A stretch of 64,000 nt of DNA from Candidatus Parcubacteria bacterium (GCA_043760135.1 JAYUPL010000014.1:25347-89346), one strand, 5' to 3'. Numbered from the stretch's first letter, positions 8,841 through 61,832 are shown. The notes: generated from the letters alone by a model not told the origin. Translations and numbers: made by a program.

Positions 8841-9272
8841 ATGAAAACCACACATTTGATTATTTTGTTCTTCGCGTTTTTTCTCTCTGCTTCGGCGCAG
8901 ACTGGTCCGAGTTATGGACTTCCGAAACTCAAAGAGGTTCAAGGTGCTCGGACGAGTGTTGACGGTCGTTGGATTAACTATGACGGTAGTCTGTACCATA
9001 TAATGGACACTTCCTTCAATAAGGATTCGGATGAACCAATTCTTTTTGTAAATAGTGATCCATACATTGTTGGGGCTCGGATCACTCTCAATGATGAGTT
9101 CGTGTACTACGGTCGAAACAATTACCAAAAGTTTCGGACCGCTTGGAAACCGATGGTGATACGTGGAGGTGAGATAAAACGTCCAACTGGAGCAGTCTTA
9201 GGATTTGCAGTTTTTATTGCTATTTTTATAACCTGCTTCGCAAGATCTACTGCCAAAAGGACAGCATGGTAG
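8841..9272 (+). CDS. hypothetical secreted protein with C-terminal TM anchor
   Basis: Signal peptide MKTTHLIILFFAFFLSASAQ, C-terminal hydrophobic segment, GC above background. Confidence 0.4.
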   Translation: MKTTHLIILFFAFFLSASAQTGPSYGLPKLKEVQGARTSVDGRWINYDGSLYHIMDTSFNKDSDEPILFVNSDPYIVGARITLNDEFVYYGRNNYQKFRTAWKPMVIRGGEIKRPTGAVLGFAVFIAIFITCFARSTAKRTAW

Positions 9273-9379
9273 GTGAATCTGTTTTTGTTTTCAAATCAAC
9301 CCTCGGGACTCTAAAAGTTCCAGGGTTTTCTTTTTATTTGATAAATTGCTGTTGGTGAGGTATACATAAAGTATCCGAA

Positions 9380-9601
9380 ATGGTTTCGGATCTTGAACCT
9401 TCGACCTATATGAGAACCATAAGCACCGTTTTCCTCGTTTTACTTACTGTCAAATTATTTTTCTCCTTCAGTGGTGTGCCGTTGTTTATTGTTATGATCG
9501 TTTCTGTATTTGCTGTTCCTTTCTTTATTATGGAGATACTCTACATCTCTCAAGATAGGGACAGTGACCTCGGATATATCAATCGATCTTCTAACTGGTA
9601 A
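9380..9601 (+). CDS. hypothetical small membrane protein
   Basis: Two predicted TM helices. No recognisable family. Confidence 0.3.
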   Translation: MVSDLEPSTYMRTISTVFLVLLTVKLFFSFSGVPLFIVMIVSVFAVPFFIMEILYISQDRDSDLGYINRSSNW

Positions 9602-9624
9602 CCTTGTGCAAACCCAAATCAAAA

Positions 9625-9657
9625 ATCCCCGGACTTTTACAGGACTGGGGATTCTCT
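9625..9657 (-). terminator. rho-independent terminator (minus-strand reading: ccccagtcctgtaaaagtccgggga + TTTTT)
   Basis: GC-rich stem followed by a T-run on the minus strand. It closes the structured region downstream of the DoxX-like gene. Confidence 0.55.
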
Positions 9658-9723
9658 TTATTAACGACGTAGAGTGAGAGAAACAAAAGTGATGACACTT
9701 TTGTTTCCGAACCGAGGAGTTAA
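9658..9723 (-). repeat. conserved structured element, copy 2 (inverted orientation): same flanks as copy 1, central hairpin gaaacaaaagtg/tcat/cacttttgtttc
   Basis: Reverse complement matches 2177..2240 in both flanks (about 20 + 24 nt identical). The hairpin sequence differs but is fully compensatory. Confidence 0.55.
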
Positions 9724-9819
9724 CGGTAAATACCTCGGAGCTTTGCTCCGGCACATGGACAAGCAAAGCTTGTTCGATGTGATACCTCGATGCTCTGCAT
9801 CGGGGAGGTATTCATTTAA

Positions 9820-10230
9820 TTAAAACTTTGGTAAATCAGCTGTTGAGTGTGCGACGATAATTTTATCTTTCGGGTGGTTTGTCACCAATGCCCATTTTCC
9901 ACCACCAACTGCAGCAAGGATTGCAGAACCGATAAGTAGTAGTATTGCATCTGTAGATTGACCATTTGTGTAATACACAGCACCAATCATTATGATGAGT
10001 GCACCAGCTGCGGCTAACTTGGTCCATATTCCAAAAATAAGACCAAGACCTGTTGCGAGCTCTCCAAGTGCCACTGCCCAGGCAAAGCCTGCAGATAATC
10101 CTGTTAACCCACCCAAGATATTTACCGCATGATTCATATCAGTAAGTTTGTTGTAACCTGCATATGCAAGCATTCCTCCAGCAACGAGGCGAATAATTAA
10201 TATTAGTATATTTTTTATATTTGTATTCAT
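9820..10230 (-). CDS. DoxX-family membrane protein
   Basis: About 135 aa with 4 TM helices. N-terminal LILIIRLVAGGMLAYAGYNKL resembles DoxX. Confidence 0.5.
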   Translation of the reverse strand: MNTNIKNILILIIRLVAGGMLAYAGYNKLTDMNHAVNILGGLTGLSAGFAWAVALGELATGLGLIFGIWTKLAAAGALIIMIGAVYYTNGQSTDAILLLIGSAILAAVGGGKWALVTNHPKDKIIVAHSTADLPKF

Positions 10231-10237
10231 GTACTAA

Positions 10238-10684
10238 TTATACCACCTCCTGTATTTCTTTTACCACCTCCTGCATCTCATTTTCTGTATAAGTATATTT
10301 TTCCTCTGCGAAATCATTATATCGAGGAATGATGTGTAGATGTGCGTGGAAAATTACCTGATGTGCTGTTGGTTCATTATTCATAACGATATTTATACCA
10401 TCAGCAGATAAAGCATTTTTCATAGCGATAGCTATTTTCTGAGCGGTGATATTCATACGGCACCATATTTCAACAGGTAAATCATATATATTCTCATGGT
10501 GATTTTTTGGGATAATCAACATATGACCTCGGGTATGTGGAAAGATATTAAGAAAAGCTAAGGTCTCATCATCTTCATGTACTTTAGTAGAAGGGTTTTC
10601 ATTTTTGATAATTTTACAAAATAGGCAATCTGCCACTATATTGTCTTCGTCATGTGTTGCTTTATTGTTGTCGTTTGGATTCAT
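10238..10684 (-). CDS. HIT-family (histidine triad) hydrolase
   Basis: CLFCKI near the N-terminus and the histidine triad HAHLHIIPR. Confidence 0.85.
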   Translation of the reverse strand: MNPNDNNKATHDEDNIVADCLFCKIIKNENPSTKVHEDDETLAFLNIFPHTRGHMLIIPKNHHENIYDLPVEIWCRMNITAQKIAIAMKNALSADGINIVMNNEPTAHQVIFHAHLHIIPRYNDFAEEKYTYTENEMQEVVKEIQEVV

Positions 10685-10707
10685 AAAACTATGATATCAT
10701 ATATCCC

Positions 10708-12486
10708 ATGTTTGAGACTATCGACCAAAGTTTTATAAAAAAAATCCTTAAAGATAGGGGTTTTAATAAGGGTGAGACAGAAGAATTTCTTAACCCTTTA
10801 TATATTGAAGAAAATGGCGGTATGTATGATGGCCGAAAAATGAAAGATATGGATAAGGCTATGCAGAGAATATGGACCGCAATAGATGCTGATGAAAAGA
10901 TTGCAATCTACTCTGACTACGATGCTGATGGGGTTCCAGGTGCTGTGGTTCTGTATTCATTTTTCAAGAAAATCAAATATCAAAATAATGTGGTTGTGAA
11001 AATTCCTCATCGTCATAAAGATGGGTTTGGTCTACATAAACATTTGATAGATGAATTGAAAGTTGATGGTGTAAAATTAATTATCACAATCGATCTAGGC
11101 AGTTCGAATGTTGAACAGGTTGACCATGCTAACTCTCTAGGTATCGATGTTATTATCACAGACCACCACGAGCCTCATGAAAAATTACCTCATGCTGTTG
11201 CAATTTTAAATCCAAAACAAGAAGGTTGTAAATATCCTGATAAGAATCTTTGTGGTTCTGGGGTGATTTTTAAGTTGGTTCATTTAATGATTATTGAAGC
11301 AAGAAAAAGAAAATATGATATTGCAGTTGGGTATGAAAAATGGCTATTGGACATGGTAGGTCTTGCTACCATATCGGACATGGTTCCTTTGACGGGAGAG
11401 AATAGAGTTTTTGCTCAGTATGGTTTGAAGGTTCTACAGAAGAATAAAAGAAAAGGAATCTATCATCTTTTAAGTAAGTTAAAAATAAATGAGAGATACC
11501 TCGACGAATCTGATATTGGATTCTCAGTTTCACCGTGCATCAATGCCGCATCTCGTATGAGTCACGCTATCGATGCTTTTAATTTATTGTCATCTGATGA
11601 TGAGGATACTTGTATCAAATCAGCCGATGCATTAATAAAGCTTAACAAGCTTAGGAAATCTTCTGCTGATAGTTTGATCGGAGATATCAAAAATAAAATC
11701 GATGTGAGTCAAGTTCGTGACATTATTGTGATTGGAGACGAAAATTGGTCACCCACTATCTTGGGTCCTGCCGCATCAAACTTGGTACGACAGTTTCAAC
11801 TCCCTGTTTTCATTTATGCATCCGCAGGAGAAGATGTGTTTCGTGGATCATGCAGGTCAATACCAGGAATATCAGTTGTTGACATCATGGGTCATGTTTC
11901 AGAAGATTTTTTTATAGAATCAGGCGGACATCACGCATCTGGTGGTTTTGCATTTGCCACAGAAAAGAGAGATTTATTTGAAGCCGAGATGAGGGAAGCT
12001 TTTAGAAAATATAAAGAGATACGTGACAGTGCAAAGGTGAACGAAGAGATTGTGGCTGATGAGATATCATACAAGATTACTCATAACAACGTTGATAATT
12101 TTTTAATTAAGCATCTTGCCCAGATGAAACCTTTCGGGATGAAAAATCAAAGTCCGTTATTTTGTATCAAACAGGTGTCTTTTCGTACTATAAAATATTT
12201 TGGTAAACAGAAAGAACACATCGAATTTGTTGTTGAACAGTTCTTAAATGATAAACAACAGATGGAAACAGTCACACCTGAGTTGTTTCAGGACACATAC
12301 AAGTATTCTTCAAACTATAGTAAGAAAGATGTTGTAAAATACATAAGCTTCTTTGCTGATAATTTATTGCAGGATATCAAAGCAAACATCGAGTACGACA
12401 TATATGGTCGTGTTGAGGAGAGTAATTTTTTGGGTAAAAAAGAGATTCGTGTTAAAGTTGAATACATACATGTTTCAGAAAAATAA
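10708..12486 (+). CDS. recJ: single-stranded-DNA-specific exonuclease RecJ
   Basis: DHH phosphoesterase motifs (DYDADGV, ITDHHEP) and a DHHA1-like C-terminal region. Confidence 0.85.
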   Translation: MFETIDQSFIKKILKDRGFNKGETEEFLNPLYIEENGGMYDGRKMKDMDKAMQRIWTAIDADEKIAIYSDYDADGVPGAVVLYSFFKKIKYQNNVVVKIPHRHKDGFGLHKHLIDELKVDGVKLIITIDLGSSNVEQVDHANSLGIDVIITDHHEPHEKLPHAVAILNPKQEGCKYPDKNLCGSGVIFKLVHLMIIEARKRKYDIAVGYEKWLLDMVGLATISDMVPLTGENRVFAQYGLKVLQKNKRKGIYHLLSKLKINERYLDESDIGFSVSPCINAASRMSHAIDAFNLLSSDDEDTCIKSADALIKLNKLRKSSADSLIGDIKNKIDVSQVRDIIVIGDENWSPTILGPAASNLVRQFQLPVFIYASAGEDVFRGSCRSIPGISVVDIMGHVSEDFFIESGGHHASGGFAFATEKRDLFEAEMREAFRKYKEIRDSAKVNEEIVADEISYKITHNNVDNFLIKHLAQMKPFGMKNQSPLFCIKQVSFRTIKYFGKQKEHIEFVVEQFLNDKQQMETVTPELFQDTYKYSSNYSKKDVVKYISFFADNLLQDIKANIEYDIYGRVEESNFLGKKEIRVKVEYIHVSEK

Positions 12487-12997: not shown

Positions 12998-13050
12998 AAC
13001 TTTAGAACTTCTTTACTAAAACTTTAACCTCACTGTGTAACAATGGTGGG

Positions 13051-14962: not shown

Positions 14963-15015
14963 ATCTTTATTATTTCTTTTGTTTTTCTTTATATAGTATA
15001 TGCTTTAATCATTAG

Positions 15016-16239: not shown

Positions 16240-16743
16240 ATGCTTAAAATAAAGGACGAAAAGAAAATAAAAATAGCTAAAATTCCAGTACCAGAGACGT
16301 TTGAAGAAAAGGTTTCCAAAAGCATAGGGTCAATTTGGTCACTCTATATTCATACAGCTATATTTGTCCTTTCATTTTTACTTATAATTTTAGGGGTTTC
16401 TACAGAAGAAGTGTTACTAACACTAACAACATTGGTATCTTTGGAAGCAATCTACCTCTCTATTTTCATACAAATGGCGGTAAACAAGAACACCGAATCT
16501 CTTGAAGAAGTTGAGGAAGACCTGGATGAGATCCAAGAAGATATTGATGAGATTCAGGAGGGTGTTGAGAGTATTGAGGAGGACATCGATGAGATCCAAG
16601 AGGATGTTGAAGAGATTGAGGAGGATGTGGATGAGATAGAAGAAGGTGATAATAAAAGAGACAAAGCAGTAAATGACAAGTTCACAAAAATTGATAATCA
16701 ATTAAACTTAATATTAGCTGAATTAAAAAACTTACAAAAATAA
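16240..16743 (+). CDS. membrane protein with C-terminal acidic tandem repeats
   Basis: Two TM helices followed by a repeated E-E-D-[ILV]-D-E-I-Q-E 9-aa unit. Start chosen at the internal ATG to avoid overlap with rpmB. Confidence 0.45.
   Translation: MLKIKDEKKIKIAKIPVPETFEEKVSKSIGSIWSLYIHTAIFVLSFLLIILGVSTEEVLLTLTTLVSLEAIYLSIFIQMAVNKNTESLEEVEEDLDEIQEDIDEIQEGVESIEEDIDEIQEDVEEIEEDVDEIEEGDNKRDKAVNDKFTKIDNQLNLILAELKNLQK
16507..16650 (+). repeat. about 5 tandem 27-bp coding repeats (acidic 9-aa units)
   Basis: Repeating units gaggaagacctggatgagatccaagaa / gatattgatgagattcaggag, and so on. Confidence 0.6.
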
Positions 16744-18555: not shown

Positions 18556-18640
18556 TTTGAGGTCACAATTTGTGACCTCAAATTTGGTACAAGAAAATTC
18601 CCCAAGGACCGAGATGGTCCGAGGGGAATGTTTTTTGTTT
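18556..18640. terminator. two hairpins (aaatttgaggtcacaa/ttgtgacctcaaattt and ccccaaggacc/ggtccgagggg + T6) between convergent genes
   Basis: Perfect 16-bp palindrome plus a GC stem followed by TTTTTTG. Confidence 0.6.
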
Positions 18641-19547
18641 ATTCTACAGGCCACTCGCCATCGAAGTTTGGAAGCACTACTTTATCGATATAATCTTTAA
18701 AGAGGCTACTTTCAGGATTAATGCCTAAGAGTAGTTCATTGTAGAGATGACTAAAGAATCCTTTGTGTCCGAAAAATTCTCTAGCCGCTGTCCTGGTGTA
18801 CTTATAGTGACTCAACGCACCTACCCAGGAATTTAAAGTACTGAGTATGTGGAAACACTTAAAGTCTTCGGCATTTTCCCAATGACAATCTTCCGTGACG
18901 ATGCTCAGATGGGTATAGTCTAATCTCCCAGGCCGAATGATTCTTTGTCCAAAATGTGTCCATCGGCACAAGTTTTCATTAGTGATGTGGGCGGCGAATA
19001 ATGGACTCCATGCCTCGTGGTCTTCATCAGACAGAAAATCTGTAAGTCTTCCTGCATAATCATTGGGTGATGCAAGACCACACTTAATAAAAATCCAGAT
19101 TAACATCTTACGTAGGAATTCTTGTTCATCTCTGTATAAATCCAGACTAAAGCCGTACATTTCAGATGAATAACCGGAGGCATTTGGTACTTGAGACCAG
19201 ATAAGATCTATATCATTCCCTAACTTTTTGTATGAAGGTACATCTGATTTGCCGTATTTTTTATAAATAATGTTTTGTTTCCGACGCAATTCTTCAACGC
19301 GTTTGGTTCGGTTTGGAACCAAAACAGTAATATAGTGAATCAGCGATTCCAAAAGGGTAACATACAGATCATAATCACTGTTTTCTTTACGTTTTGCGTC
19401 GATATCACTGTTTCTGTTTTTATTCAGTACAATCCAAGGATAAAGTTGGCTAAAATCTCTCCAATCATTGCTCAGTTTTTGGATGAGCGCGTTGAGCAAG
19501 GGAAGGAATGCGGGGAATGCCACGAAGTTTTCTGGAAACATTTTCAT
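18639..19547 (-). CDS. hypothetical protein (302 aa), GC-elevated
   Basis: Long ORF with GC near 42% and no recognisable motif. Confidence 0.4.
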   Translation of the reverse strand: MKMFPENFVAFPAFLPLLNALIQKLSNDWRDFSQLYPWIVLNKNRNSDIDAKRKENSDYDLYVTLLESLIHYITVLVPNRTKRVEELRRKQNIIYKKYGKSDVPSYKKLGNDIDLIWSQVPNASGYSSEMYGFSLDLYRDEQEFLRKMLIWIFIKCGLASPNDYAGRLTDFLSDEDHEAWSPLFAAHITNENLCRWTHFGQRIIRPGRLDYTHLSIVTEDCHWENAEDFKCFHILSTLNSWVGALSHYKYTRTAAREFFGHKGFFSHLYNELLLGINPESSLFKDYIDKVVLPNFDGEWPVE

Positions 19548-24502: not shown

Positions 24503-25384
24503 ATGATAATGTCTAATATATACAAAAAAATAGAAAATCTTCGTCAAAGGTACCAAAAAGCGTTACCAGGTAAGGAATCTTTGATAAAGATGATTGAAGA
24601 ATCAGAAGTTGCTGAACAGGTGTATAACTCAAATGCTATTGAAAACAGTACTCTTTCACTTGAAGAGACTGAAAAAATCATACTACAAATAGACCTAGAT
24701 AGATTCATATCCGAAAGAGAACTCTTCGAAGCTAAAAATCTAGCTCGAGTCGTTTCTTATATAAGCACGAAAGCAAAGGAAAAAGAGCTAGATCTTGATA
24801 TGATTTTACTTTTGCATAAAATGTTGATTTCAAATATTCAGGATGATATTGCGGGTAGGTTTAGAAAAAATGGTGAATGGGTTCGTGTTGGCAATCATAT
24901 CGCCCCAGACCCGCTTGAGGTCGTTTTAAGGCTTACTGACATGCTGGTTGAATATAACTCATACCCAAGTCATCCTATAACAAAAAGAGTTGCTTTAATG
25001 CATTTAATGTTCGAACACACTCACCCATTTTGTGATGGCAATGGTCGGATTGGCAGGATATTGAATAATTATGTACTTATACGAGAAGGTTTTGTTCCGA
25101 TCAATATAAAGTTCATAGACAGACAGTTGTATTATCAAGCATTTAAAGATTTTGATTTAAAAAATAGTATAGAAATAATGGAGGAAATTGTAGGCAAGGC
25201 GTTGTTAAATAGTTATCATAAAAGACTGGCATATCTTGAAGGGTTGAAAATTGTAACATTGGCAGAATATGCAAAGATGAAAAAGATGTCGCATCCAAAT
25301 CTTATAAATAAAGCCAATAGGCAGACGATAGAGGCGTTTTTGGATCAGGGGATTTGGAAGATTGGGGTGAGGGAGGGGGTGTAA
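24503..25384 (+). CDS. fic: Fic-family AMPylase, class II (N-terminal inhibitory helix)
   Basis: Fic motif HPFCDGNGRIGR. N-terminal SNAIEN matches the [ST]xxxE[GN] auto-inhibitory motif. Confidence 0.85.
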   Translation: MIMSNIYKKIENLRQRYQKALPGKESLIKMIEESEVAEQVYNSNAIENSTLSLEETEKIILQIDLDRFISERELFEAKNLARVVSYISTKAKEKELDLDMILLLHKMLISNIQDDIAGRFRKNGEWVRVGNHIAPDPLEVVLRLTDMLVEYNSYPSHPITKRVALMHLMFEHTHPFCDGNGRIGRILNNYVLIREGFVPINIKFIDRQLYYQAFKDFDLKNSIEIMEEIVGKALLNSYHKRLAYLEGLKIVTLAEYAKMKKMSHPNLINKANRQTIEAFLDQGIWKIGVREGV

Positions 25385-25387
25385 ACT

Positions 25388-26155
25388 TTACTTAATCGCA
25401 GTACTCCACACAAACAAAAAAATTTGCTTAAACATATTAGAAATAGTTGGAGATGAAATAGTCACTGCATAAATATTTCCATCTTTTAATGAAAATAATG
25501 CCACATGGTCTTCCATTGCAATCATTGTTGAATTAAATGGAAATTGATTTGGTAAAAATCTCACCTCTCTATATTCATCATTGGTATATGCTGGAAGATT
25601 GAGGTCTTTAACGAATTCTGGAGCAATCAGATGGGTAAATATTTTAAGTTTATTTTTACGATTAAGTACATTAGGTAGATATTTAGGAAAATTCTCTAAA
25701 AGTTCAGGGTGAGATACTGTATAAAGGTTTCTTTCTGTTTTTGTTTCTAAAATATCATAAAACCCATTAATAATATCTTTTATTGCATCCTTCCCTTCAT
25801 AAAATCTTACTTCTGGATGCAGGGTATTTTTTTGGAGTAGGGATTCAAGTTCGGGGAATATCTCTTTTATTATACTTGTTTTTGATTCAGCTTCTTTAAC
25901 TAATCGTCTAGGGTTTTCTGCATACCAGTAGGCAACCTGGTTTTTCTTAAATATGTTTACTAAATCACGCTTTTTTAATCTTTCCAGATCACAGTATACA
26001 GTGGTCCGGGGAAGGGTAAGATGTTTTGCAACCTGAAAAACAGTCTGATCTTTATTACTTAATAGGTAAAGATAGATTGAAGCCTCTCTGTCATTAAGGC
26101 CATATTCTATTAGATTTTGGGTTAAATTGTTTAGTGTCATAAAAGTGGACAACAT
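25388..26155 (-). CDS. TrmB-family transcriptional regulator
   Basis: N-terminal wHTH (EASIYLYLLSNKDQTVFQVAKHLTLPRTTVYCDLERLKKRDLV) plus a C-terminal TrmB-like domain. Confidence 0.7.
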   Translation of the reverse strand: MLSTFMTLNNLTQNLIEYGLNDREASIYLYLLSNKDQTVFQVAKHLTLPRTTVYCDLERLKKRDLVNIFKKNQVAYWYAENPRRLVKEAESKTSIIKEIFPELESLLQKNTLHPEVRFYEGKDAIKDIINGFYDILETKTERNLYTVSHPELLENFPKYLPNVLNRKNKLKIFTHLIAPEFVKDLNLPAYTNDEYREVRFLPNQFPFNSTMIAMEDHVALFSLKDGNIYAVTISSPTISNMFKQIFLFVWSTAIK

Positions 26156-26249
26156 TAGTATATATTATATTGCTTTACATGTAAAGGTTTTATGTATTTT
26201 ACTATAAGAACAGTCATATTTCATGACATTAATTGACATTTAATATATT

Positions 26250-26990
26250 ATGTTACTTGGAACTAGTTGTTCCAAAAGAACCCTAAAAATCAACAATATG
26301 ATCGGATTATCAAATAGTGTACGACTTGAGCAACGTGTATATTATCGTCAGTCTTTGTCCTTGGATTTGAGACTGGGTTGTGATCTCACAATAGAACAAC
26401 GAGTAGATCAAATCGATACAGGAAACTGGTACTATGCAAGTTTCATTGATTTTATTGATCGTGCTATAGGTCATCAGATTTTACCGTCTGCAACCTGTCT
26501 CAATTGTTATCATGAGCTTTCAATCGCTGAAATCGTTGTGGGCTTTAAAAGAGATAGGGATGATTTCACGACACAATGTCCAACATGTAAGAAAAGGTTT
26601 GAAGCAACAAACCTGCTTGATCGTCGGACAGGAAAGGAAACCCAGTTCTGGTGTGATGAACAAACACTTGCACGATTGTATAGCAAAGAGCATCTCGAAG
26701 TTGAGGAGTTTGAGGCTAAGCATCCAGAAATCTATTACTCTGCACTTTTTCACTTCGGTAGTTTATTGAATGCTTTTAGCAAAATTAAAATCAAGTATCA
26801 TAAAGAGAAGCTAAATTGGCCTGATAAGGCTAAACTTTTTCTGGGACAGATTCCTGATATTGATGTTGCGAAAGTGTTCGGTGTTAAAATCTCTGAGATT
26901 AGAAAAGCTCGCATCGAATTTGGTATCGATGCATTCCCAAGAAGTAAATCTATTATGCCTGCAAACTGGAAACCCTATAGAAACAACTAA
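26250..26990 (+). CDS. hypothetical zinc-ribbon protein with C-terminal HTH-like segment
   Basis: CLNCYHE...CPTCKK cysteines. C-terminal DVAKVFGVKISEIRKARIEFGI. GC elevated. Confidence 0.4.
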   Translation: MLLGTSCSKRTLKINNMIGLSNSVRLEQRVYYRQSLSLDLRLGCDLTIEQRVDQIDTGNWYYASFIDFIDRAIGHQILPSATCLNCYHELSIAEIVVGFKRDRDDFTTQCPTCKKRFEATNLLDRRTGKETQFWCDEQTLARLYSKEHLEVEEFEAKHPEIYYSALFHFGSLLNAFSKIKIKYHKEKLNWPDKAKLFLGQIPDIDVAKVFGVKISEIRKARIEFGIDAFPRSKSIMPANWKPYRNN

Positions 26991-26991
26991 C

Positions 26992-27246
26992 ATGCAACAC
27001 AACGGAGAAAATACAAAACTGGAAAAAGGAGATATATGTCGTTGGTTCAAAGGACATGGAACTATTACGTTTATCCGAGACTTAAAACATATGCGGATAC
27101 ACGAAGGTCAGGATGATAAATTCTGTGTCCAATCAATATCCTTCCTTCATTTTGCAGAAATGGTAAAAATGGTATCGGAAGCAACAGGTATGAAAGCGAG
27201 TATTCATGCAGACAACGAGCAGTTTGCGGATTACATATTCAGCTGA
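26992..27246 (+). CDS. hypothetical small protein
   Basis: 84-aa ORF taken from the internal ATG directly after the previous stop. Confidence 0.3.
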   Translation: MQHNGENTKLEKGDICRWFKGHGTITFIRDLKHMRIHEGQDDKFCVQSISFLHFAEMVKMVSEATGMKASIHADNEQFADYIFS

Positions 27247-27334
27247 CAGATTTGTTTATAATCATCAAACGCACGGACTCTTAATGGAGTACCGGCGTTT
27301 TTTTCTTGATTTGGATAATTTAAAAAGGACTAAA

Positions 27335-27387
27335 CCTATACTTAAGTACAGGAAAAAGGGTGGTTTTTCTATACTTGAGTATAGGAA
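27335..27387 (+). promoter_or_regulatory. two direct 20-bp repeats ctaTACTTAAGTAcaggaaa / ctaTACTTGAGTAtaggaaa, each with an internal palindrome, overlapping the promoter region of the Bro-N gene
   Basis: TACTTAAGTA is a perfect 10-bp palindrome. Repeats are spaced 33 bp apart (3 helical turns). A TATAAT lies at 27409..27414. Confidence 0.4.
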
Positions 27388-27425
27388 ATTTAGAATTTGA
27401 CACCAATGATATAATTAAATAATCA

Positions 27426-28250
27426 ATGAATAAAAAAGCTGATAACAAAAAAATAACTATCTTTGAGGATAAAGAAATACGTCGCGTGTGGCATGATGAG
27501 CGATGGTTTTTTGTTGTCGAAGATGTTATCAAAGCCCTTATTGACTCAAACGATGCTAAGCAGTATATACAGAAAATGAGAACACGTGATCTTGAATTAA
27601 ATCAAGGGTGGGTACAAATTGTACTGACCCTTGACGTGTCAACAAAAGGTGGTCTTCAGAAAATGATATGCTCTGACATGGAAGGTGTTTTTCGTATAAT
27701 CCAATCAGTATCATCCCCTAAAGCTGAACCATTCAAGCTCTGGCTAGCTCGAATAGGTAAAGAAAGACTGGAAGAAATAGCAAACCCTGAACTCGCTGTG
27801 GCTCGGGCTAAAGAACTATATGAGAAAAAAGGCTATGACAAGTCGTGGATAGATAAACGCATGCGAGGCATTGCAGTTCGTAACACTTTGACTGATGAAT
27901 GGAAAAACCGTGGAGCAAAAGGTTCTGATTATGCAATTCTGTCTGATGAGATATATAAAGCAACATTTGATAAAACTGCAAAAGAATACATGGATCATAA
28001 AAGCCTTGATAAAAAAGCGGGGGATAATCTTCGTGATCATATGGGTGATATCGAGCTTATCTTGACTATGCTTGGTGAAGCAACGACAACAGAGCTTTCG
28101 ACAACTAAAGATTCTCAGGGTATTGTTGCGCTTAAACAAGATGCTGAAACTGGTGGAGAAGTTGCTGGGCGGACACGGAAAGATATTGAGGAGAAGACGG
28201 GTAAGTTGTTGGTGTCGAAGAGGAATTTTAAGGATAGGAAACGGATTTAA
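27426..28250 (+). CDS. Bro-N domain protein (DinD-like, DNA-damage-inducible/phage-antirepressor family)
   Basis: ITIFEDKEIRRVWHDERWFFVVEDVIKAL and SSPKAEPFKLWLAR match the Bro-N domain. Confidence 0.75.
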   Translation: MNKKADNKKITIFEDKEIRRVWHDERWFFVVEDVIKALIDSNDAKQYIQKMRTRDLELNQGWVQIVLTLDVSTKGGLQKMICSDMEGVFRIIQSVSSPKAEPFKLWLARIGKERLEEIANPELAVARAKELYEKKGYDKSWIDKRMRGIAVRNTLTDEWKNRGAKGSDYAILSDEIYKATFDKTAKEYMDHKSLDKKAGDNLRDHMGDIELILTMLGEATTTELSTTKDSQGIVALKQDAETGGEVAGRTRKDIEEKTGKLLVSKRNFKDRKRI

Positions 28251-28530
28251 CTATTACATTTTTCGAACCATCGATGTATAATACATATGTGCTTGTTAAG
28301 CGAAAGCTTTATATCGGCTACTAAGCTGAAGGTAGGCATTGATAAAGATCTCGTTCTCGTAACGGGTTTTTATGTTATACGTTAGTCATTATAACTTTAT
28401 ATTTAGGGTTTGAATCAAGTAAACTTTATAAAGTTTGGTAAATATTAAGTCTGAGTATAAAGTTTGCTTACATCAAAGGGTTTTAAGGGTGCTTTGTAAA
28501 TATATAAAACTAGGCTACAATATTACCTAT

Positions 28531-29028
28531 ATGGAAGGATTACAAACATTAGAGGAAAATAAAATAAGTTCATTAGAAACACTTGCCACAGAGTATTCTG
28601 TCTTAGCTAAGTATTTAGAGTCAAGTGAAAAATTTTATAGTCACAATGGAATACCTTTACCTGAAGCATTGTATGACGAAGAAAATAAAGAGCTTGTTAT
28701 AGAAATGACTGTTCCTGAAACAGCTCAGGCTTGGGAAGGGTTTGCTCATGGTGGATATTTGGCCACTTTATTAGATACTGGTGCTGGTGTAGCAGGTTTT
28801 ATGGAAGCTATAAAAATGGGAAAAGGTATTGTAACAAAAGAAATAAATAATATAACTTACAAAGCGCCAATACCTGTTGGTTCGCTTATTAAAGTTCGAG
28901 GGAAAATTGTTTCAATAGAAGAAAATGTTGTCAATACTGAAGGATATATATCGTTAGTTATTGAAGGTAAAGAGCGAAGACCTTTTGTATATTGTACAGC
29001 AAAAATGGTTATTAAGGATATTGGTTAA
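28531..29028 (+). CDS. hotdog-fold acyl-CoA thioesterase (PaaI-like)
   Basis: AHGGYLATLLDTGAGVAGF motif. Start taken at the internal ATG. Confidence 0.6.
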   Translation: MEGLQTLEENKISSLETLATEYSVLAKYLESSEKFYSHNGIPLPEALYDEENKELVIEMTVPETAQAWEGFAHGGYLATLLDTGAGVAGFMEAIKMGKGIVTKEINNITYKAPIPVGSLIKVRGKIVSIEENVVNTEGYISLVIEGKERRPFVYCTAKMVIKDIG

Positions 29029-29098
29029 TATATAAAATGAACCCCACTCAGCTAATGCCTTGTGGGGTTATGTTTTGAACCAGAGTTTGTGACCCGGT

Positions 29099-29560
29099 TC
29101 ATTTCCTGATGACCGCTACGTTCCAGTAGTCGGGATACCAACCTTCATGCAGGTGTCTTTTTTGATAGTTGATTGCTGATCCGCGACGGCTGTATTCAAT
29201 TGAAACGACCCATTTATCAGTACTGAAATAATTCTCAAACATGCTACCGAAGAAGAAGAGAGCGTGACCATCCATGCATACAGGGGGAAGATGTTTGAGA
29301 CTTTCGTCAGCGGGATTTTTTGAAATATAATCAGACATGCAATGATTTAAGGGGATGTATTCTACCTGTTGTTGTAACAAGTTAAACATATCCCCAATAG
29401 TCATGTCCTTTGTTCCAATTTTGATTACTTCGATATGGCGAGGGTCAACCATTCCACAATTTTGAAAGTTTGTAATCGGTTCTTTGTATTTAAACCATTT
29501 ATGTTTCTGAATTTCTTCATATTCAGCTGAGGAACTGCAGTCTACTAATGTGTCAGTCAT
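29099..29560 (-). CDS. hypothetical protein
   Basis: 153-aa ORF, GC elevated. Confidence 0.4.
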   Translation of the reverse strand: MTDTLVDCSSSAEYEEIQKHKWFKYKEPITNFQNCGMVDPRHIEVIKIGTKDMTIGDMFNLLQQQVEYIPLNHCMSDYISKNPADESLKHLPPVCMDGHALFFFGSMFENYFSTDKWVVSIEYSRRGSAINYQKRHLHEGWYPDYWNVAVIRK

Positions 29561-33246: not shown

Positions 33247-33843
33247 ATGGCCACAAAAGATATTGTCTGGATGTCTATTATCCTCCTTGTTATCATTATT
33301 ACTTCGGTTATTTCCTGGAAGGAAAAGAATAATGCTCGAAATTTTGTTTTGAACTCTAAAACCGCCCTGGAGGATTTACTTAACCAGGCAGAAGACTTAC
33401 TTGATAAAAATCCTGAAGTTGCACCTCCATTTTTCGATGATTTTCATGAGATGTGGTGCGATCTTATAAATTTATTCCAAGGTGTCGATGAGAACACCTT
33501 TGATATTTGTTGGGTCACGAAGCAGAAAGAGGTGTTGATATTTAAACACTCGATAACTGCCAAGGTCGTCGAAATCAAAGAAGACATTCAGATAGTAATC
33601 GACGCAAAGTTCCATGTGCCTTTGTTGTTAGAGCTACTGCCTCCATTGCTTTCAGAAGTTCGTAAAAAGATTTCTGAAGGAAAACTTTCCGAGGACAAAG
33701 CGAAGCCTTATCTTGATCGAGCACACGGTTGGTTTTCTGAAGCGTGTGCAGTGATGCGTCAAAGTCAGGATCATTCATTGATATGGGGTATGCTCAGAAG
33801 CGCAAACGAAGAACTTGGTTTGGCTGATTCTTTCGAGGTGTAA
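33247..33843 (+). CDS. hypothetical protein with N-terminal TM
   Basis: 198-aa ORF. Confidence 0.4.
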   Translation: MATKDIVWMSIILLVIIITSVISWKEKNNARNFVLNSKTALEDLLNQAEDLLDKNPEVAPPFFDDFHEMWCDLINLFQGVDENTFDICWVTKQKEVLIFKHSITAKVVEIKEDIQIVIDAKFHVPLLLELLPPLLSEVRKKISEGKLSEDKAKPYLDRAHGWFSEACAVMRQSQDHSLIWGMLRSANEELGLADSFEV

Positions 33844-43436: not shown

Positions 43437-43973
43437 CTATTTTCCGATCAACTCATCAACAGCTACTTGGATTTTTTTGGTGATATAGATTGAAACGTTA
43501 GGATCACCATCGTTAGCATGTCCAGGACCTGGTAGGTTGAGGAATTTTTCGTAGCGCAGGTATCTTCCTTGATATGCCACCTCTCCACCGCACCGGTTGA
43601 TAATAGGTTGTCCGTATTCCGGATCATACACATCAGAAAATCCGAAGGCGGTCAGCAAATCTTCCAAAGAAAGCCAGATGGTTCCACTGCTGAAGGATTG
43701 GGTAGAATGATTGATTTTATAAGTTAAAAGCCAACCATCAGGTTCTCGGGCAAGTCCGGTGAGATCCTTTGTGATGGCGATTTCCACCGCACTTGAACCA
43801 AGGAGTAGTGTTTTCCGTACTGAGTTGGCGTCGTTGAACCCAATCCAATCGATTTTTGAGCCGTGGTGATGGAACCAGTCGGGAATACCCAACCCTCTTT
43901 GGAAGATCGGTTTAATTATTGGTGTTGTTTGTTTCATCAGTGTATCTTGTTGAAGTTTCTGTCTTTTGTACAA
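43437..43973 (-). CDS. hypothetical protein, GC-rich outlier
   Basis: 178 aa with GC near 45-47%. Directly upstream of the divergent deaminase on the same strand. Confidence 0.4.
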   Translation of the reverse strand: MYKRQKLQQDTLMKQTTPIIKPIFQRGLGIPDWFHHHGSKIDWIGFNDANSVRKTLLLGSSAVEIAITKDLTGLAREPDGWLLTYKINHSTQSFSSGTIWLSLEDLLTAFGFSDVYDPEYGQPIINRCGGEVAYQGRYLRYEKFLNLPGPGHANDGDPNVSIYITKKIQVAVDELIGK

Positions 43974-44103
43974 TATATGAAAATTTGGTAGGTGTAAATA
44001 GGGATGATTGGGTCCTTATATTATGACCTTTGTGGTTACAGGACCAGTATATCTTTCGAATCTCACCCGCAAGCCGAACTGTCGGCTTGCTCTCCATCTA
44101 ATG

Positions 44104-44136
44104 AAAAACAGATGTCTTTAAAAGACATCTGTTTTT
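44104..44136. terminator. palindromic hairpin aaaaacagatgtctttt/aaaagacatctgttttt
   Basis: 15-bp perfect palindrome with A/T runs, adjacent to the 3' end of tRNA-Ser. Confidence 0.55.
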
Positions 44137-44141
44137 CCTAG

Positions 44142-44228
44142 CGGAGGAGGTGAGATTCGAACTCACGGGACCCGTTAGAGCCCTCTTGTTTTCAAGACAA
44201 GCGCATTCGACCTCTCTGCCACTCCTCC
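44142..44228 (-). tRNA. tRNA-Ser (anticodon TGA), class II with long variable arm
   Basis: Reverse complement ggaggag-tg-gcagagaggtcgaatgcgc-ttgtc-ttTGAaa-acaag-agggctctaacgggtccc-gtgag-ttcgaat-ctcac-ctcctcc-g closely matches bacterial tRNA-Ser(UGA). Confidence 0.8.
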
Positions 44229-47630: not shown

Positions 47631-47659
47631 GCACTTCTATTTTGCCAAGGCAAAATATG
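47631..47659 (+). repeat. tRNA-trailer hairpin motif gcacttctattttgccaaggcaaaatatg (copy 1)
   Basis: 27 of 29 nt identical to the reverse complement of 50335..50363, which directly follows tRNA-Val. Confidence 0.5.
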
Positions 47660-50333: not shown

Positions 50334-50334
50334 C

Positions 50335-50363
50335 ACATTTTGCCTTGGCAAAATAGAAGTACA
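50335..50363 (-). repeat. tRNA-trailer hairpin motif (copy 2, follows tRNA-Val on the minus strand)
   Basis: Minus-strand reading gtacttctattttgccaaggcaaaatgtg. Confidence 0.5.
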
Positions 50364-55135: not shown

Positions 55136-55236
55136 AGAAAATAAAGAAGCATCACTGAGAGGTGATGTTTTTTTGTTGTTCTTATACTATAATAATAGTC
55201 AGAATTATAATTATAAATAAAATTTATACAATCTTA

Positions 55237-56268: not shown

Positions 56269-56341
56269 TTATTCTTAAATTCAAAAAAAATAAATTATCT
56301 ATAACACAGGTGATTTATTTTTTTATGTTATTATATAAATT

Positions 56342-57118: not shown

Positions 57119-57168
57119 AAAAAAAGTCAAGCAGTCATTAAAAATTCAAAAATGATACAATTACCAAA

Positions 57169-57687: not shown

Positions 57688-57698
57688 TTTTTAAATAT

Positions 57699-58124: not shown

Positions 58125-58139
58125 AAATAAAACATATAC

Positions 58140-58820
58140 ATGACAAAATCAATACACATTGCAATAGAAGGAACGGACTGTTCAGGAAAAGCCACTCAGA
58201 CACAAAAATTAAAAGAAAGATTTGTAGCTTCAGGTGCACCAACTGAAGTCTTTGCATTCCCAAGATACGGAGAGCCTGCATGTGTATTAGTTGAAAAATA
58301 TTTGCATGGAGAATATGGTACTGCTGTTGAAGTTGGCCCATTTGCAGGTTCGATGTTTTATGCAGCTGATAGATATGATGCCTCATTTGCTATTAGAAAA
58401 AATCTGGACGCAGGAACAAACGTTATTTGTGATAGATTTACATCTTCAAACATGGGGCATCAAGCAGGGAAGATTGATGATCTAACTGAACGAGATGCAT
58501 ATCTTGAATGGTTGGATAATCTAGAGTTTAAACTTTTAAATATTCCAAGACCAGATAAAATAGTTTTTTTGTATGTACACCCTGAGATCAGTCAAAAACT
58601 TATGGCAGAGCGTGCTGATAAAGATTATTTGAAAGGAAAGAAAAAAGATATTCATGAAGCAGACATGGATCACTTAATGAAGGCATCAAATGCGTTTTTA
58701 TATGTAGCGAAGAAATATAATTGGATTGTGATTGATTGTGCACCGGAGGGTGAGCTTTTGAGTATTGATACCATACATGAGATGGTGTGGAAAGGGGTGA
58801 ATTCAAGAATGCGTAGTTGA
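58140..58820 (+). CDS. tmk: thymidylate kinase
   Basis: P-loop IAIEGTDCSGKATQ, DRFTSSNMGHQ and lid region. Confidence 0.75.
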   Translation: MTKSIHIAIEGTDCSGKATQTQKLKERFVASGAPTEVFAFPRYGEPACVLVEKYLHGEYGTAVEVGPFAGSMFYAADRYDASFAIRKNLDAGTNVICDRFTSSNMGHQAGKIDDLTERDAYLEWLDNLEFKLLNIPRPDKIVFLYVHPEISQKLMAERADKDYLKGKKKDIHEADMDHLMKASNAFLYVAKKYNWIVIDCAPEGELLSIDTIHEMVWKGVNSRMRS

Positions 58821-58850
58821 CTAATTTTATAGAGGTGGTATTTTGAGAGA

Positions 58851-59384
58851 GTGAGCACTACAAAAAATACAATATTTGATATTTCAAGCCCAGACGTTGC
58901 TGTGCAAAAGACCGTTTTTGATCAGCTTGTTGGATTGGACTTTTTACAGGCTAATCCTATTCGTACTAAGGATCATGTATATACGATGAATAGTTTTTTA
59001 CACTACGGCCAAGGTCATCATTCTGTATTGAATGCCGCCAGTCAAGTTTTAAGTTCAACCAATCCGATTCATATAAGCTGTGGATTGTTTGCAGATTTCT
59101 TTGTGGAAATGGAAAATTCCGAACTTAAACACAAGCCCAATTCAGCGGCCGAGGCTGTTCGGGCTTTGAAAAGAGAAGTTCTAAGTTTGATCAGAATTGT
59201 TCATATCCATATCAAATCGGATTGCATTCACAATCTGACAAGAAGGATGGCATTGAATATATGGCATCAGAGCATCGATTATCGTAATCCAAATGAAAGG
59301 TGGTTGACGTTCGAGACTTTGGACATTGATTTGATCTCTAAGCAAATACTGCAGTACATACGGGAATCAGAAGTACCTGCCTAA
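58851..59384 (+). CDS. hypothetical protein (GC-elevated)
   Basis: 177-aa ORF followed by a strong terminator. Confidence 0.4.
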   Translation: MSTTKNTIFDISSPDVAVQKTVFDQLVGLDFLQANPIRTKDHVYTMNSFLHYGQGHHSVLNAASQVLSSTNPIHISCGLFADFFVEMENSELKHKPNSAAEAVRALKREVLSLIRIVHIHIKSDCIHNLTRRMALNIWHQSIDYRNPNERWLTFETLDIDLISKQILQYIRESEVPA

Positions 59385-59397
59385 TTTACATTTCACC

Positions 59398-59430
59398 AAA
59401 GCTGGTCCCACCCCGGGACCGGCTTTTTTT
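59398..59430 (+). terminator. rho-independent terminator ggtccc-acccc-gggacc + T8
   Basis: GC stem followed by tttttttt. Confidence 0.65.
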
Positions 59431-59450
59431 ACTACCCCAATTCTGATATA

Positions 59451-61199
59451 GTGAACTATATGTTACCCATCGCCTTGCAGATAAAAACCCACTGTATTTC
59501 ATTCCTTAAAACGAACGATATGACAGACGAAGATATACAAAAAATAAAATTTACAGTCGATATAAATAAAGATATTGATAGGGGGGATCTCTATACTAAC
59601 TTTGCTTTAGTGGCTTCAAAAACGTTCAATCAGAACCCTATTGTGATTGCTATCAATCTGGCAGAATATTTACATCAACAACTCGATAAAAATATTTTCA
59701 AAAAAGTAGAGGCGGCTGATTCTTATGTAAATTTTTATTTAGTTGATGATTTTCAAACATCGATAGGGAAAATAAACCATCCAGAATTTACTGGAAAAAA
59801 AATAGCTTACGAATATACTGATCCAAACCCAATGAAAGAATTTCATATTGGGCATCTTATGTCGAACACTATAGGAGAAGCCGTCTCTCGTCTAGGGGAA
59901 ATTGCCGGTGCGGAAATAAAAAGATATTCATATCAAGGAGACACAGGTCGTCACTTGGCAATTACTATGTGGGGACTTCGTTATATGAAAAATCCTTGGC
60001 CTGATGCGGAAGGTATGACTATAACTGATAAAGTAAAATTTTTAGGACAAGCCTATGTGATAGGAAATATAAAACTTGCTGAAGCAAAAGAGAAAGGTGA
60101 GGAAGAATACTCTCGTGTGATGACTGAGATAGAAATTATGAATCAAAAGATTTATGATCGGTCTGATGAAGATGTGAATACGTTATATGATCAAGGAAAA
60201 GAATGGTCTTTGCAAAAGTTTGAGCAATTGTATGAAGTGCTTGGAACAAAATTTGATCATTATTTTTTCGAAAGTCAGACAGCTCCTATTGGCCTAAAGA
60301 TTGTTACGGATAATCTTAATGCAACTTCAAGTATATTTACCAAAGGTGAAAATGATGCAATTATATTTGTAGGTGAAGCTTATGGTTTACATACTCGTGT
60401 GTTTATAAACGCCAAAGGAATTCCAACTTATGAAACAAAAGAGATGGGTCTGGCTCAGATGAAATATGATTTGTGGAACTTTGATCGGAGTATTGTCCTA
60501 ACTGCCAATGAGCAAAATGAAGTGTTTAAAGTAACAAATAAGACAATCACTCTTTTGATGCCGGAGATTGGTTCAAAGATGGAACATTTGGGACACGGTA
60601 TGATGAGTTTTGTTGGAGTGAAAATGAGTTCACGAACAGGAAAGATCTTAGCAGGAGATGAGTTGCTGGAAGATATGATGGCGAGCTCATATGAGAAAAT
60701 GGCAGAGCGTGATATGACAGAAGAAGAAAAACAAGATGTGTCAAAAGACATTGCAGTTGCAGCGATCAAGTTTTCTATACTCAAACAAAACTTTAGAAAA
60801 AACATTATTTTTGATAAAGAGAAAGCATTGTCATTGGAAGGAGATTCAGGTCCGTATATACAATATGCAATTGTGCGTATTAATTCTATTGAGAAAAAAA
60901 CAGAAGGATTGTCTGTTTCTGTCGTGAAAAATGAAATGTCTCCTGAGGCAGAAAATCTACGGCGAACATTGTGGAGATTTAATCATATGTGTTACAAAGC
61001 GATTGATGAATTTGCCCCACAATATATCGCACAGTATCTTATTGATCTGGCTTCAAGGTTCAATACTTTTTACAACAAGAATAAAATTATAGAGGATGAG
61101 AAGGTAAGTAAAGAATTATTGGATCTGTGTGTAAAAACTAGAGATATATTGACACAAGGGTTGACAACACTTGGGATACGGGTGGTTTCGAAGATGTAA
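59451..61199 (+). CDS. argS: arginine--tRNA ligase
   Basis: Class I HIGH motif (FHIGHLMSNTIGEA) and C-terminal DALR anticodon-binding region. Confidence 0.85.
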   Translation: MNYMLPIALQIKTHCISFLKTNDMTDEDIQKIKFTVDINKDIDRGDLYTNFALVASKTFNQNPIVIAINLAEYLHQQLDKNIFKKVEAADSYVNFYLVDDFQTSIGKINHPEFTGKKIAYEYTDPNPMKEFHIGHLMSNTIGEAVSRLGEIAGAEIKRYSYQGDTGRHLAITMWGLRYMKNPWPDAEGMTITDKVKFLGQAYVIGNIKLAEAKEKGEEEYSRVMTEIEIMNQKIYDRSDEDVNTLYDQGKEWSLQKFEQLYEVLGTKFDHYFFESQTAPIGLKIVTDNLNATSSIFTKGENDAIIFVGEAYGLHTRVFINAKGIPTYETKEMGLAQMKYDLWNFDRSIVLTANEQNEVFKVTNKTITLLMPEIGSKMEHLGHGMMSFVGVKMSSRTGKILAGDELLEDMMASSYEKMAERDMTEEEKQDVSKDIAVAAIKFSILKQNFRKNIIFDKEKALSLEGDSGPYIQYAIVRINSIEKKTEGLSVSVVKNEMSPEAENLRRTLWRFNHMCYKAIDEFAPQYIAQYLIDLASRFNTFYNKNKIIEDEKVSKELLDLCVKTRDILTQGLTTLGIRVVSKM

Positions 61200-61433
61200 A
61201 CGGACATAGAGTGTACGAGTGTCAATTTGCTTTTTTTAAATGCGGATGGTGATTAAGTAAATAATTTCACATAGTTTACTGTTTACTATAAACTATAAAC
61301 TATTATTAAAATCTATATAAACACTGTCCTCAAATTATGAAAAAATACCCTATTCGCTGTTTCTTAAAAAATCAGAGTAGTTCCCAAGATGTAGGTTTTG
61401 TGCTTAAATAGAACTGTCTAACATTTAAAAATT

Positions 61434-61832
61434 ATGAACATAGAAAAACATCTCCCGTATTGGCATAAAGGTAGGTATTATCCCAATCGCTTTGAAATAA
61501 AACCTGCACTTCATCTTGGGGGATGGCAACATCCTGATCAGCACGGCACCGTTTCAAGACCTAATGGTCATGAGATTATTCGCATACTAGAAGCTCGCTT
61601 CCTTCACCGTGTTATCGGTTTGGTAACTTTGATACATTATCAGAAATTCCCTAAAACACGTCCAGTCATTTTTCAAAATATTCACATGTGTGGCTGGCTT
61701 GATATAGTTCTTGGTTCACATAGTGACAGAATCTTTGTTCCAACCTTGACCCCTCAAAACAAGATTCATTGGATGGATCTCAACAGTGGATTCAATTGTT
61801 TGGACTTTATTCCACTTCGACGCGCTACTTGA
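61434..61832 (+). CDS. hypothetical protein (GC-rich outlier between argS and lysS)
   Basis: 132-aa ORF, GC near 45%. Confidence 0.4.
   Translation: MNIEKHLPYWHKGRYYPNRFEIKPALHLGGWQHPDQHGTVSRPNGHEIIRILEARFLHRVIGLVTLIHYQKFPKTRPVIFQNIHMCGWLDIVLGSHSDRIFVPTLTPQNKIHWMDLNSGFNCLDFIPLRRAT

Follow-up and report, generated by a model that had tools for sequence, protein, structure and literature searches.

A 64-kb stretch of DNA (referred to here, at its full length, as the window; GC content, 34.6%) from the metagenome genome of an uncultured, freshwater, ultra-small member of the Paceibacteria, one of the candidate phyla radiation (CPR) bacteria, carries small genes of unusual composition at eight places. 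The results indicate that these loci are probably genuine small accessory genes which occupy turnover hot spots between core genes and are drawn from a gene pool lying mostly within the Patescibacteria. They had been flagged in a preliminary description as unknown genes of visibly higher GC content than their neighbors, and open reading frames (ORFs) were present at all eight coordinates. Two of the intervals had to be corrected: 26250-27246 comprises two genes in different frames (26250-26990 and 26992-27246), and the gene at 43437 starts in public assemblies at ATG 43937, not at 43973. The other intervals stood as given. The candidate set analyzed here consists of nine ORFs, 26250-27246 being counted as two, which together cover 4.8 kb, or 7.5% of the window:

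8841..9272, plus strand: 143 amino acids (aa), PGK/DoxX slot; GC 0.428, GC content at third codon positions (GC3) 0.396
18639..19547, minus strand: 302 aa, SHMT/TrmB-like slot; GC 0.394, GC3 0.386
24509..29560, no strand assigned: variable 5-kb segment between rhodanese and EF-G, in the order Fic, TrmB, 26250, 26992, Bro-N, 4HBT, 29099
26250..26990, plus strand: 246 aa, with zinc-ribbon-like CxxC...CxxC motifs; GC3 0.320
26992..27246, plus strand: 84 aa, in a frame separate from that of 26250-26990; GC3 0.353, atypical codon usage, terminator folded
29099..29560, minus strand: 153 aa, adjoining EF-G; GC 0.390, GC3 0.403
33247..33843, plus strand: 198 aa, N-terminal transmembrane helix; GC 0.400, GC3 0.407
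43437..43937, minus strand: 166 aa, directly downstream of a tRNA-Ser gene, Lnb_N/RuvX slot; GC 0.447, GC3 0.437
58851..59384, plus strand: 177 aa, GTG start, tmk/argS slot; GC 0.388, GC3 0.376
61434..61832, plus strand: 132 aa, His-rich, between argS and lysS, lineage-specific family with the motif GWQHPDQ; GC 0.406, GC3 0.331

The window encodes a series of housekeeping proteins (TIM, PGK, RecJ, SHMT, S12, S7, EF-G, S20, NusG, L11, ArgRS, and LysRS) as well as a type IV pilus cluster and ComEC. The sequence recurs in an NCBI contig of 105 kb and in three sequencing runs as assembled by Logan. Because the gene order is repeated in these independent assemblies, the arrangement of the window is not an assembly chimera.

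To place the candidates, relatives of the window were gathered by means of LysRS, rhodanese, and DUF2339 homologues and compared by tblastn, which gave 11 syntenic loci in total. The LysRS scan, run on species-representative genomes, matched solely CPR metagenome genomes of the Paceibacteria/Parcubacteria/Nomurabacteria type. Loci L008 to L011 and L072 were the closest (LysRS identity, 88-91%), followed by L012 to L014 and L076 (78-80%). The core proteins of close relatives were 78-99% identical to those of the window (EF-G, ~93%; S7, 95-99%; SHMT, 96%), and the gene order was kept. The nine ORFs fell into at least seven separate slots with syntenic core flanks, namely, PGK/DoxX, SHMT/TrmB-like, rhodanese/EF-G, bPH-like/orf35402, Lnb_N/RuvX, tmk/argS, and argS/lysS. 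A comparison with related genomes, suggested earlier as a check, found every candidate absent or replaced in at least one relative, and most of them were missing from all relatives covering the slot, with flanks 78-99% identical. The slots were empty or otherwise filled in L008, L010, L072, L076, L088, L090, L091, L093, L094, and L095. We classed a gene, by synteny only, as core when it was present in every relative covering its position (n = 40) and as flexible when it was missing from at least one (n = 27). All nine candidates were in the flexible class (27 of 67 genes; hypergeometric probability, ~1e-4). Since they all lie in variable intercore slots and are absent, replaced, or much diverged in relatives, several separate events are supported. 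Of the proposal of multiple independent acquisitions instead of one island, the absence of a single island is thus supported, with at least seven slots, but independence is not supported for 26250, 26992, and 29099, which share a single 5-kb segment.

The state of the individual slots varied among the relatives. Gene 8841 was missing in L090 and L091, where PGK directly adjoins DoxX. Gene 18639 was missing in L088 and L095, and its slot in L088 is filled by a nonhomologous 212-aa gene with a GC content of 0.469 on the same strand as 18639. The rhodanese/EF-G segment was absent as a block in L095 (rhodanese adjoins EF-G), and its contents differed in L088 and L094; the only recurring genes were 26992 (77% identity) and Bro-N (76-82%). 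No homologue of 26250 was found in L088, L094, or L095, and 29099 was missing in the same three loci; 26992 has an orthologue at the same position in L088. Genes 33247 and 43437 were missing in L093 to L095, where other genes occupy those slots. Gene 58851 was missing in L072, L010, and L076 and had an orthologue in L008 only, which is 45% identical and syntenic, with promoter and terminator conserved (GC3, 0.356). The GC3-rich unique genes of the relatives, such as the 212-aa gene of L088, were likewise confined to intercore slots. Another example is the slot between bacA and the dCMP deaminase gene, which in L008 (5238-5813, minus strand), L010 (5682-6401, minus strand), and L076 (4362-4964, minus strand) contains a GC3-rich gene for a fast-evolving secreted protein (29-33% identity) with a PEP-CTERM-like tail (IPEPG..., a hydrophobic stretch, and RRR). 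In the window, bacA and the dCMP deaminase gene are adjacent, and the secreted-protein gene is missing. Upstream of SHMT, where the window has an M50 peptidase gene, L088 carries at 363-941 a probable transposase or integrase-core fragment (MIEIHPDTGGEFINWHMKGWCDSQNIH...), which suggests activity of insertion sequences in the lineage.

The GC elevation that had drawn attention to these genes is mainly a lack of the A/T-ending codon bias of the genome. The preliminary description had set genes of 40-47% GC against a 30% backbone. The measured values were 0.378-0.447 (37.8-44.7%) for the candidates and 0.339 ± 0.039 (33.9% ± 3.9%) for the other genes of the window. The z scores for total GC ranged from +1.0 to +2.8, and 8841 and 43437 alone were more than 2 standard deviations (SD) above the other genes. 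Several noncandidates were equally GC rich (EF-G, 0.400; L11, 0.408; DoxX, 0.406; peptidoglycan [PG]-binding protein, 0.418), and a 1-kb sliding profile peaked at 0.38-0.40 over EF-G and L11, level with most candidates. That sliding windows would place the deviations within the ordinary variance among genes had been named beforehand as the way to refute the idea; this is largely what was found for total GC, but not for synonymous composition. The GC3 of the candidates was 0.32-0.44 versus 0.259 ± 0.042 in other genes (z, +1.5 to +4.3), and in six candidates it exceeded that of every other gene (maximum, 0.354). In the GC-rich housekeeping genes, the GC comes from codon positions 1 and 2, with a GC3 of 0.24-0.28. 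When the codon-usage fit of each of the 75 genes of the window was calculated by a leave-one-out procedure, the nine lowest fits (z, -2.2 to -7.4) belonged to eight candidate ORFs (z, -2.2 to -4.2) and to the gene at 503-1420, described below. Among the flagged genes, 43437 was the most deviant. The higher composition claimed for all of them did not extend to 26250-26990, which was normal (codon-fit z, -1.6; GC at four-fold sites, 0.230).

Flexible genes as a class also differed from core genes in GC3 (0.303 ± 0.069 versus 0.251 ± 0.043; Mann-Whitney P, 6.5e-4) and in codon fit (P, 3e-4). Given that intergenic DNA has a GC content of 0.317 and four-fold sites in other genes one of ~0.21, relaxed selection cannot account for a GC3 of ~0.40. 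The composition-normalized Karlin dinucleotide signature of the candidates showed no difference from that of native genes (length-adjusted z, -1.3 to +0.6; P, 0.84). The persistence of G/C-ending codons may reflect re-introduction from a GC-richer reservoir or gene-specific selection.

Each unit has the features of a self-contained gene. The coding pattern GC1 > GC2 was seen in all candidates, and the genes were also called by independent annotations. The ratio of nonsynonymous to synonymous divergence (dN/dS) was 0.11 for 26992, 0.29 for 58851, and 0.13-0.37 for 61434, and these three genes are under purifying selection. A hairpin and a T run close each of the nine units; eight of the nine fold at a z score of -3.2 or lower, with no shuffle of 200 as stable. 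Sigma-70-like promoter boxes were found 5' of the units, most of which also have leaders rich in A+C and poor in G, a feature shared with EF-G, L11, and S12. On account of these boxes and leaders, the expression signals are native in style. For instance, TTGACA...TACTAT and an A+C-rich leader precede 33247 (terminator fold z, -4.5), and TTGCTT...TGCTATAAT precedes 29099 (terminator fold z, -3.6), both promoter-like; the terminator of 18639 folds at a z score of -4.0, and that of 8841 was folded at ~9298-9335. The product of 8841 carries a signal peptide at its N terminus and, at its C terminus, a hydrophobic anchor and basic tail, which makes it a putative surface protein; together with the 33247 product, it is predicted to be membrane or surface anchored. 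A single-sequence AlphaFold2 (AF2) model of 18639 was unusable (predicted local distance difference test score [pLDDT], 37). Transfer RNA and Rfam scans revealed no RNA gene beneath any candidate or GC peak, and there was no paralogy among the candidates.

The 43437 gene belongs to a sizeable unannotated family, with at least 428 homologous 50%-identity clusters at an E value of ≤1e-3. Its alignment contains the conserved stretches P.W.H.HG and LNIPGPGTG.DGDPNISI. One named relative is a Parcubacteria protein from a metagenome-assembled genome; the remaining members come from anonymous metagenomes. A 48%-identical homologue with a GC3 of 0.491 lies on a contig of 42.5% GC. An AF2 model built from the family alignment had a pLDDT of 94 and a predicted template modeling score of 0.89. 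Foldseek detected no analogue of this model in PDB or BFVD (none in BFVD at an E value of ≤0.001). Whirly, MRP1-MRP2, and PUR-alpha-type single-strand nucleic-acid-binding folds were compared with the 43437 family only, and the predicted fold weakly resembles the Whirly-type nucleic-acid binders. The slot is bordered by the following gene:

44141..44228, minus strand: tRNA-Ser(TGA), adjacent to 43437 at the edge of the variable Lnb_N/RuvX slot

Past the tRNA-Ser terminator and just upstream of 43437 (44040-44140, minus strand), a GC-rich hairpin (GCAAGCCGACAGTTCGGCTTGC) is followed by a 14-nucleotide (nt) inverted copy of the tRNA T-arm/acceptor (GGGTGAGATTCGAA), and the two may be a relic of integration or recombination. 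The position immediately downstream of a tRNA gene and the inverted T-arm copy recall classical tRNA-linked genomic islands. In contrast to these, the 43437 unit is a single 0.5-kb gene that lacks both an integrase and a directly repeated tRNA 3' end, and the other seven loci are not beside tRNAs.

The 61434 gene lies between argS and lysS, as had been stated. Six other genomes or contigs have a homologue in this slot or beside it, at 33-82% identity (L011, 82%; L009, 62%; three JGI contigs, 63-67%; L012, 33-37%). A 30-residue remnant and half of the terminator survive in L072, and in L008, L010, and L076 the gene is absent, with argS next to lysS. The 5' half of the gene (61452-61651) is 90-97% identical to that of L011 at the DNA level, with a synonymous divergence (dS) of 0.26, compared with ~81% identity for lysS and a dS of 0.7-0.9 for the backbone. 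This similarity points to a recent exchange between lineages or to constraint at the nucleotide level. Just upstream of 61434 and ~200 nt past the argS stop, a degenerate second argS 3' end (GTAGTTCCCAAGATGTAGG) was found at 61383-61410 (compared with 61170-61199); it is closer to the argS end of L072 than to that of the window and looks like a recombination scar. The duplication and the 5'-half identity to L011 are putative footprints of recombination at this slot, as are the gene remnant and half terminator of L072.

In two relatives the argS/lysS slot also contains, beside the 61434 homologue, a complete diversity-generating retroelement (DGR) of the kind found in CPR bacteria (L012, 3521-7329; L009, ~1900-3934). 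Each has an RVT_1 reverse transcriptase, a target gene with a variable repeat (VR) at its 3' end, and a template repeat (TR) lying 485-487 nt farther on, both repeats being 130 nt long, and the mismatches between TR and VR fall at TR adenines in 26 of 27 cases in L012 and in 21 of 22 in L009. In the window there was no TR/VR-like repeat pair and no reverse transcriptase among the called genes; 61434 homologues also exist without a DGR in L011 and L097.

By their distributions, 61434 and 58851 are old, lineage-specific residents that predate the species and have been lost in some relatives. A fresh acquisition is at odds with the presence of homologues in the same slots of relatives. Gene 26992 is likewise older than the species, and 8841, 18639, 29099, 33247, and 43437 were probably gained recently and only in this genome.

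Searches identified no donor from outside the lineage. None of the candidates had a significant match in Pfam, PHROGs, NCBIfam, or PADLOC (the PADLOC matches were at chance level; E value, 0.005-0.02), and PDB sequence searches with the candidates gave no match. The candidates, concatenated, were also run by tblastn on 50,697 phage and 72,556 plasmid records, again without a match, and IMG/VR scans with five genes or families detected no relative, at a low sensitivity for single proteins. No integrase was present among the called genes, and no long repeats flank the candidates in the window. The taxonomic check proposed earlier revealed no foreign affinity for any gene, with no deep search made for 8841, 18639, 26250, 29099, and 33247: the traceable relatives belong to the same lineage or to Parcubacteria or metagenomes, and homologues of 61434, 58851, and 26992 are confined to sister genomes. 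ORFan status is contradicted for 43437 by its 428 or more clusters, for 61434 by its six homologues, and for 58851 and 26992 by one homologue each. Integron cassettes were considered and rejected, as the candidates are scattered singletons and no attC arrays or integrase were found, with no dedicated test made. An alternative genetic code was also considered and rejected, likewise with no dedicated test.

Several other explanations were weighed. That the candidates merely reflect ordinary variance in GC content among genes, driven by amino acid content as in EF-G or ribosomal proteins, agrees with the modest total-GC z scores, with the equally rich EF-G, L11, DoxX, and PG-binding genes and their comparable sliding-window peaks, with 26250-26990, which is fully within range, and with the normal dinucleotide signature. 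It does not fit a GC3 and four-fold GC 2-4 SD above those of other genes, the lowest codon fits for eight of the nine ORFs, the low GC3 of GC-rich housekeeping genes, or the location of all nine in variable slots defined by synteny; it is largely refuted for eight of the nine ORFs, and we consider it very unlikely. Spurious ORFs or noncoding, GC-rich structured regions are extremely unlikely. At 143 and 153 aa, respectively, genes 8841 and 29099 barely surpass the length of ORFs expected by chance at 40% GC, and they have neither homologues so far nor family matches, but the coding pattern, the empty RNA scans, the purifying selection on 26992, 58851, and 61434, the confident predicted fold of 43437, the signal peptide and anchor of 8841, the promoter-like site and terminator that bracket each unit, and the independent gene calls all argue for real genes. 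Remnants or cargo of prophages, plasmids, or defense islands would be in keeping with the Bro-N and Fic genes of the rhodanese/EF-G segment, the tRNA adjoining 43437, an AAA_14/DUF4143 gene and the possible transposase fragment nearby in L088, and the DGR in the argS/lysS slot of relatives. Against such an origin stand the negative PHROGs, PADLOC, phage/plasmid tblastn, IMG/VR, and BFVD structural searches and a window devoid of an integrase, of long repeats flanking the candidates, and of a TR/VR-like pair, and its probability is again very low.

Recent independent horizontal acquisition from donors of higher GC content beyond the lineage, such as the host of this episymbiont, would explain the atypical GC3 and codon usage, the five genes without a counterpart in the sampled relatives, and the 43437 gene that abuts tRNA-Ser and has a 48%-identical homologue on a GC-richer contig. 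It is unlikely, given that no homologue beyond Patescibacteria or anonymous metagenomes was found for any gene, that the dinucleotide signature is native-like and the promoters, leaders, and terminators are native in style, and that 61434 and 58851 are old residents whose elevated GC3 persists over saturated dS. The candidates could instead be native, lineage-specific, fast-evolving genes with an intrinsic GC3 that is maintained by selection on mRNA or expression or by a different translational regime, their absence elsewhere reflecting loss or divergence and not gain. The orthologues of 58851, 61434, and 26992 keep an elevated GC3 in sister genomes at a dS of ≥1, the remnants in L072 indicate loss, slot occupants often share strand and position, and EF-G, L11, and S12 have similar A+C-rich leaders. 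Yet with a backbone ~93% identical, the retained fast genes are still 60-77% identical, and 18639, 26250, and 29099 are wholly dissimilar in L088; with nothing left of these three, replacement and not divergence is indicated. In addition, relaxed selection cannot lift GC3 to 0.40 at the intergenic and four-fold GC values given above, and flexible genes with a low GC3 exist. This origin is unlikely. Finally, the GC3-rich units could form a distinct class of promoter-ORF-terminator cassettes that would circulate among Paceibacteria, with a codon usage upheld by re-introduction from a GC-richer reservoir (an unrecognized mobile element or the host), and would encode surface and nucleic-acid-binding proteins that serve an episymbiotic way of life, among them a new and widespread Whirly-like family (43437). 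We regard this as improbable.

Some observations also weigh against small accessory genes turning over within the Patescibacteria, the explanation we prefer. No donor was identified, and none of the single-gene slots was found to have an integrase, att repeat, or mobile-element gene beside it. Genes 8841, 18639, 26250, 29099, and 33247 are singleton 90% clusters with no match in the Paceibacteria loci that were retrieved (in the order of 1 Mb; no exhaustive search was made), and the relatives covering 8841 are distant (PGK, ~50% identical). Some flexible genes are GC3 poor (4HBT, 0.169; PEMT, 0.173; orf34429, 0.215; TrmB, 0.238), and with such AT-biased members, flexibility alone is no explanation of a high GC3. 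In the orthologue pairs, the elevation is shared for 58851 (GC3, 0.376 versus 0.356 at a dS of ~1.7), and 26992 shows 0.353 versus 0.464 at a dS of ~1.0; because GC3 stays high despite saturated dS, these genes are not simply recent, unameliorated foreign DNA. Because the candidates were picked by GC, their composition statistics involve some circularity, from which the synteny test is free.

The preferred picture of turnover is as follows. Each unit is self-contained: a single ORF, preceded by a sigma-70-like promoter or an A+C-rich leader and followed by a strong intrinsic terminator. The intercore slots are turnover hot spots whose occupant is present, lost, decayed, or replaced between sister genomes, and occupants that are retained evolve several times faster than their neighbors. 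From the ComEC and type IV pilus genes of the window, we infer that the route may be DNA uptake followed by homologous recombination in the conserved flanks. The donors would most likely be related Patescibacteria or their unrecognized mobile elements, not distant phyla. In a survey of aquifer Patescibacteria, genomic islands and individually transferred genes made up as much as 13% of the genome length, and most exchanges were between Patescibacteria (PMC12455944); a gene pool within the Patescibacteria agrees with that survey.

Turnover hot spots, or flexible-genome islets, between syntenic core genes have been described for many bacteria. The slots of the window are like them in holding one or a few genes with patchy presence, atypical codon usage or GC content, mostly hypothetical products, and fast evolution. 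Acquired genes are classically AT richer than the host. Unlike these, the genes of the window deviate to a higher GC content in an AT-rich genome, are native-like in dinucleotides, include some that are old yet still deviant, and have no associated mobility genes. The CPR bacteria have tiny, streamlined genomes, which makes it of interest what genes they still exchange and at which sites. The window provides a gene-by-gene example in which small genes, predicted to be autonomously expressed, turn over in defined slots of a rigid syntenic backbone. It also illustrates that judging total GC by eye overstates and mislocates a signal that resides in codon usage and is in part old, not recent. In practical terms, it provides a short list of genes that are candidates for host interaction or accessory roles, along with the unannotated 43437-like family and its confident predicted fold. 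What is seen is an ordinary, known kind of genome flux in CPR bacteria, and it leaves views of genome evolution unchanged.

The strongest compositional outlier of the window (codon-fit z, -7.4) had been overlooked in the preliminary description:

503..1420, plus strand: 305-aa secreted protein with internal repeats (SVSPPNPIVG...VTVS.TSS); GC 0.497, GC3 0.523

This unit has a promoter-like TTGACA...TATCAT, a leader of ~90 nt, and a terminator downstream; the protein had no family match. A gene at 1688-2101, which contains an exact 32-nt direct repeat at 1991 and 2063, encodes an RNA-binding protein with an RRM domain and a C-terminal tail of RGG/GGY repeats. Its position beside the pilus operon is conserved in L090 and L091.

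A structured element of ~70-90 nt is present in two copies, at 2177-2270 (plus strand), just upstream of pilC, and at 9723-9600 (minus strand), downstream of DoxX beside gene 8841. It consists of a conserved box (TTAACTCCTCGGTTCGGAAA), a hairpin, a second conserved box (TCTCACTCTACGTCGTTAA), and then a terminator; the stem differs between the copies, with pairing kept. The element had no Rfam match, was absent from every fetched relative, and could be a small RNA or a miniature repeat element. The ends of Logan contigs at ~9685 were considered as strain variation, and this was rejected, since the contigs end exactly at a 70-nt inverted repeat; L002 and L003 end exactly at the element.

Other observations concern the native genes. 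In many of them, a TATAAT-like -10 box ends 6-9 nt ahead of the ATG and no Shine-Dalgarno sequence is present (e.g., upstream of 6842, 10230 [minus strand], 17379, 44735, and 52967), which suggests that leaderless mRNAs are widespread. A DUF948-like gene contains seven copies of a 21-nt tandem repeat (16490-16673) that encodes an acidic, heptad-like E/D-rich repeat. Two near-identical 27-nt palindromic hairpins (47633-47659 and 50334-50360; 96% complementary), one after tRNA-Arg and the other before the minus-strand tRNA-Val, flank the 2.7-kb segment of C39-peptidase, PGA_cap, and orf49664 and probably represent shared tRNA terminators.

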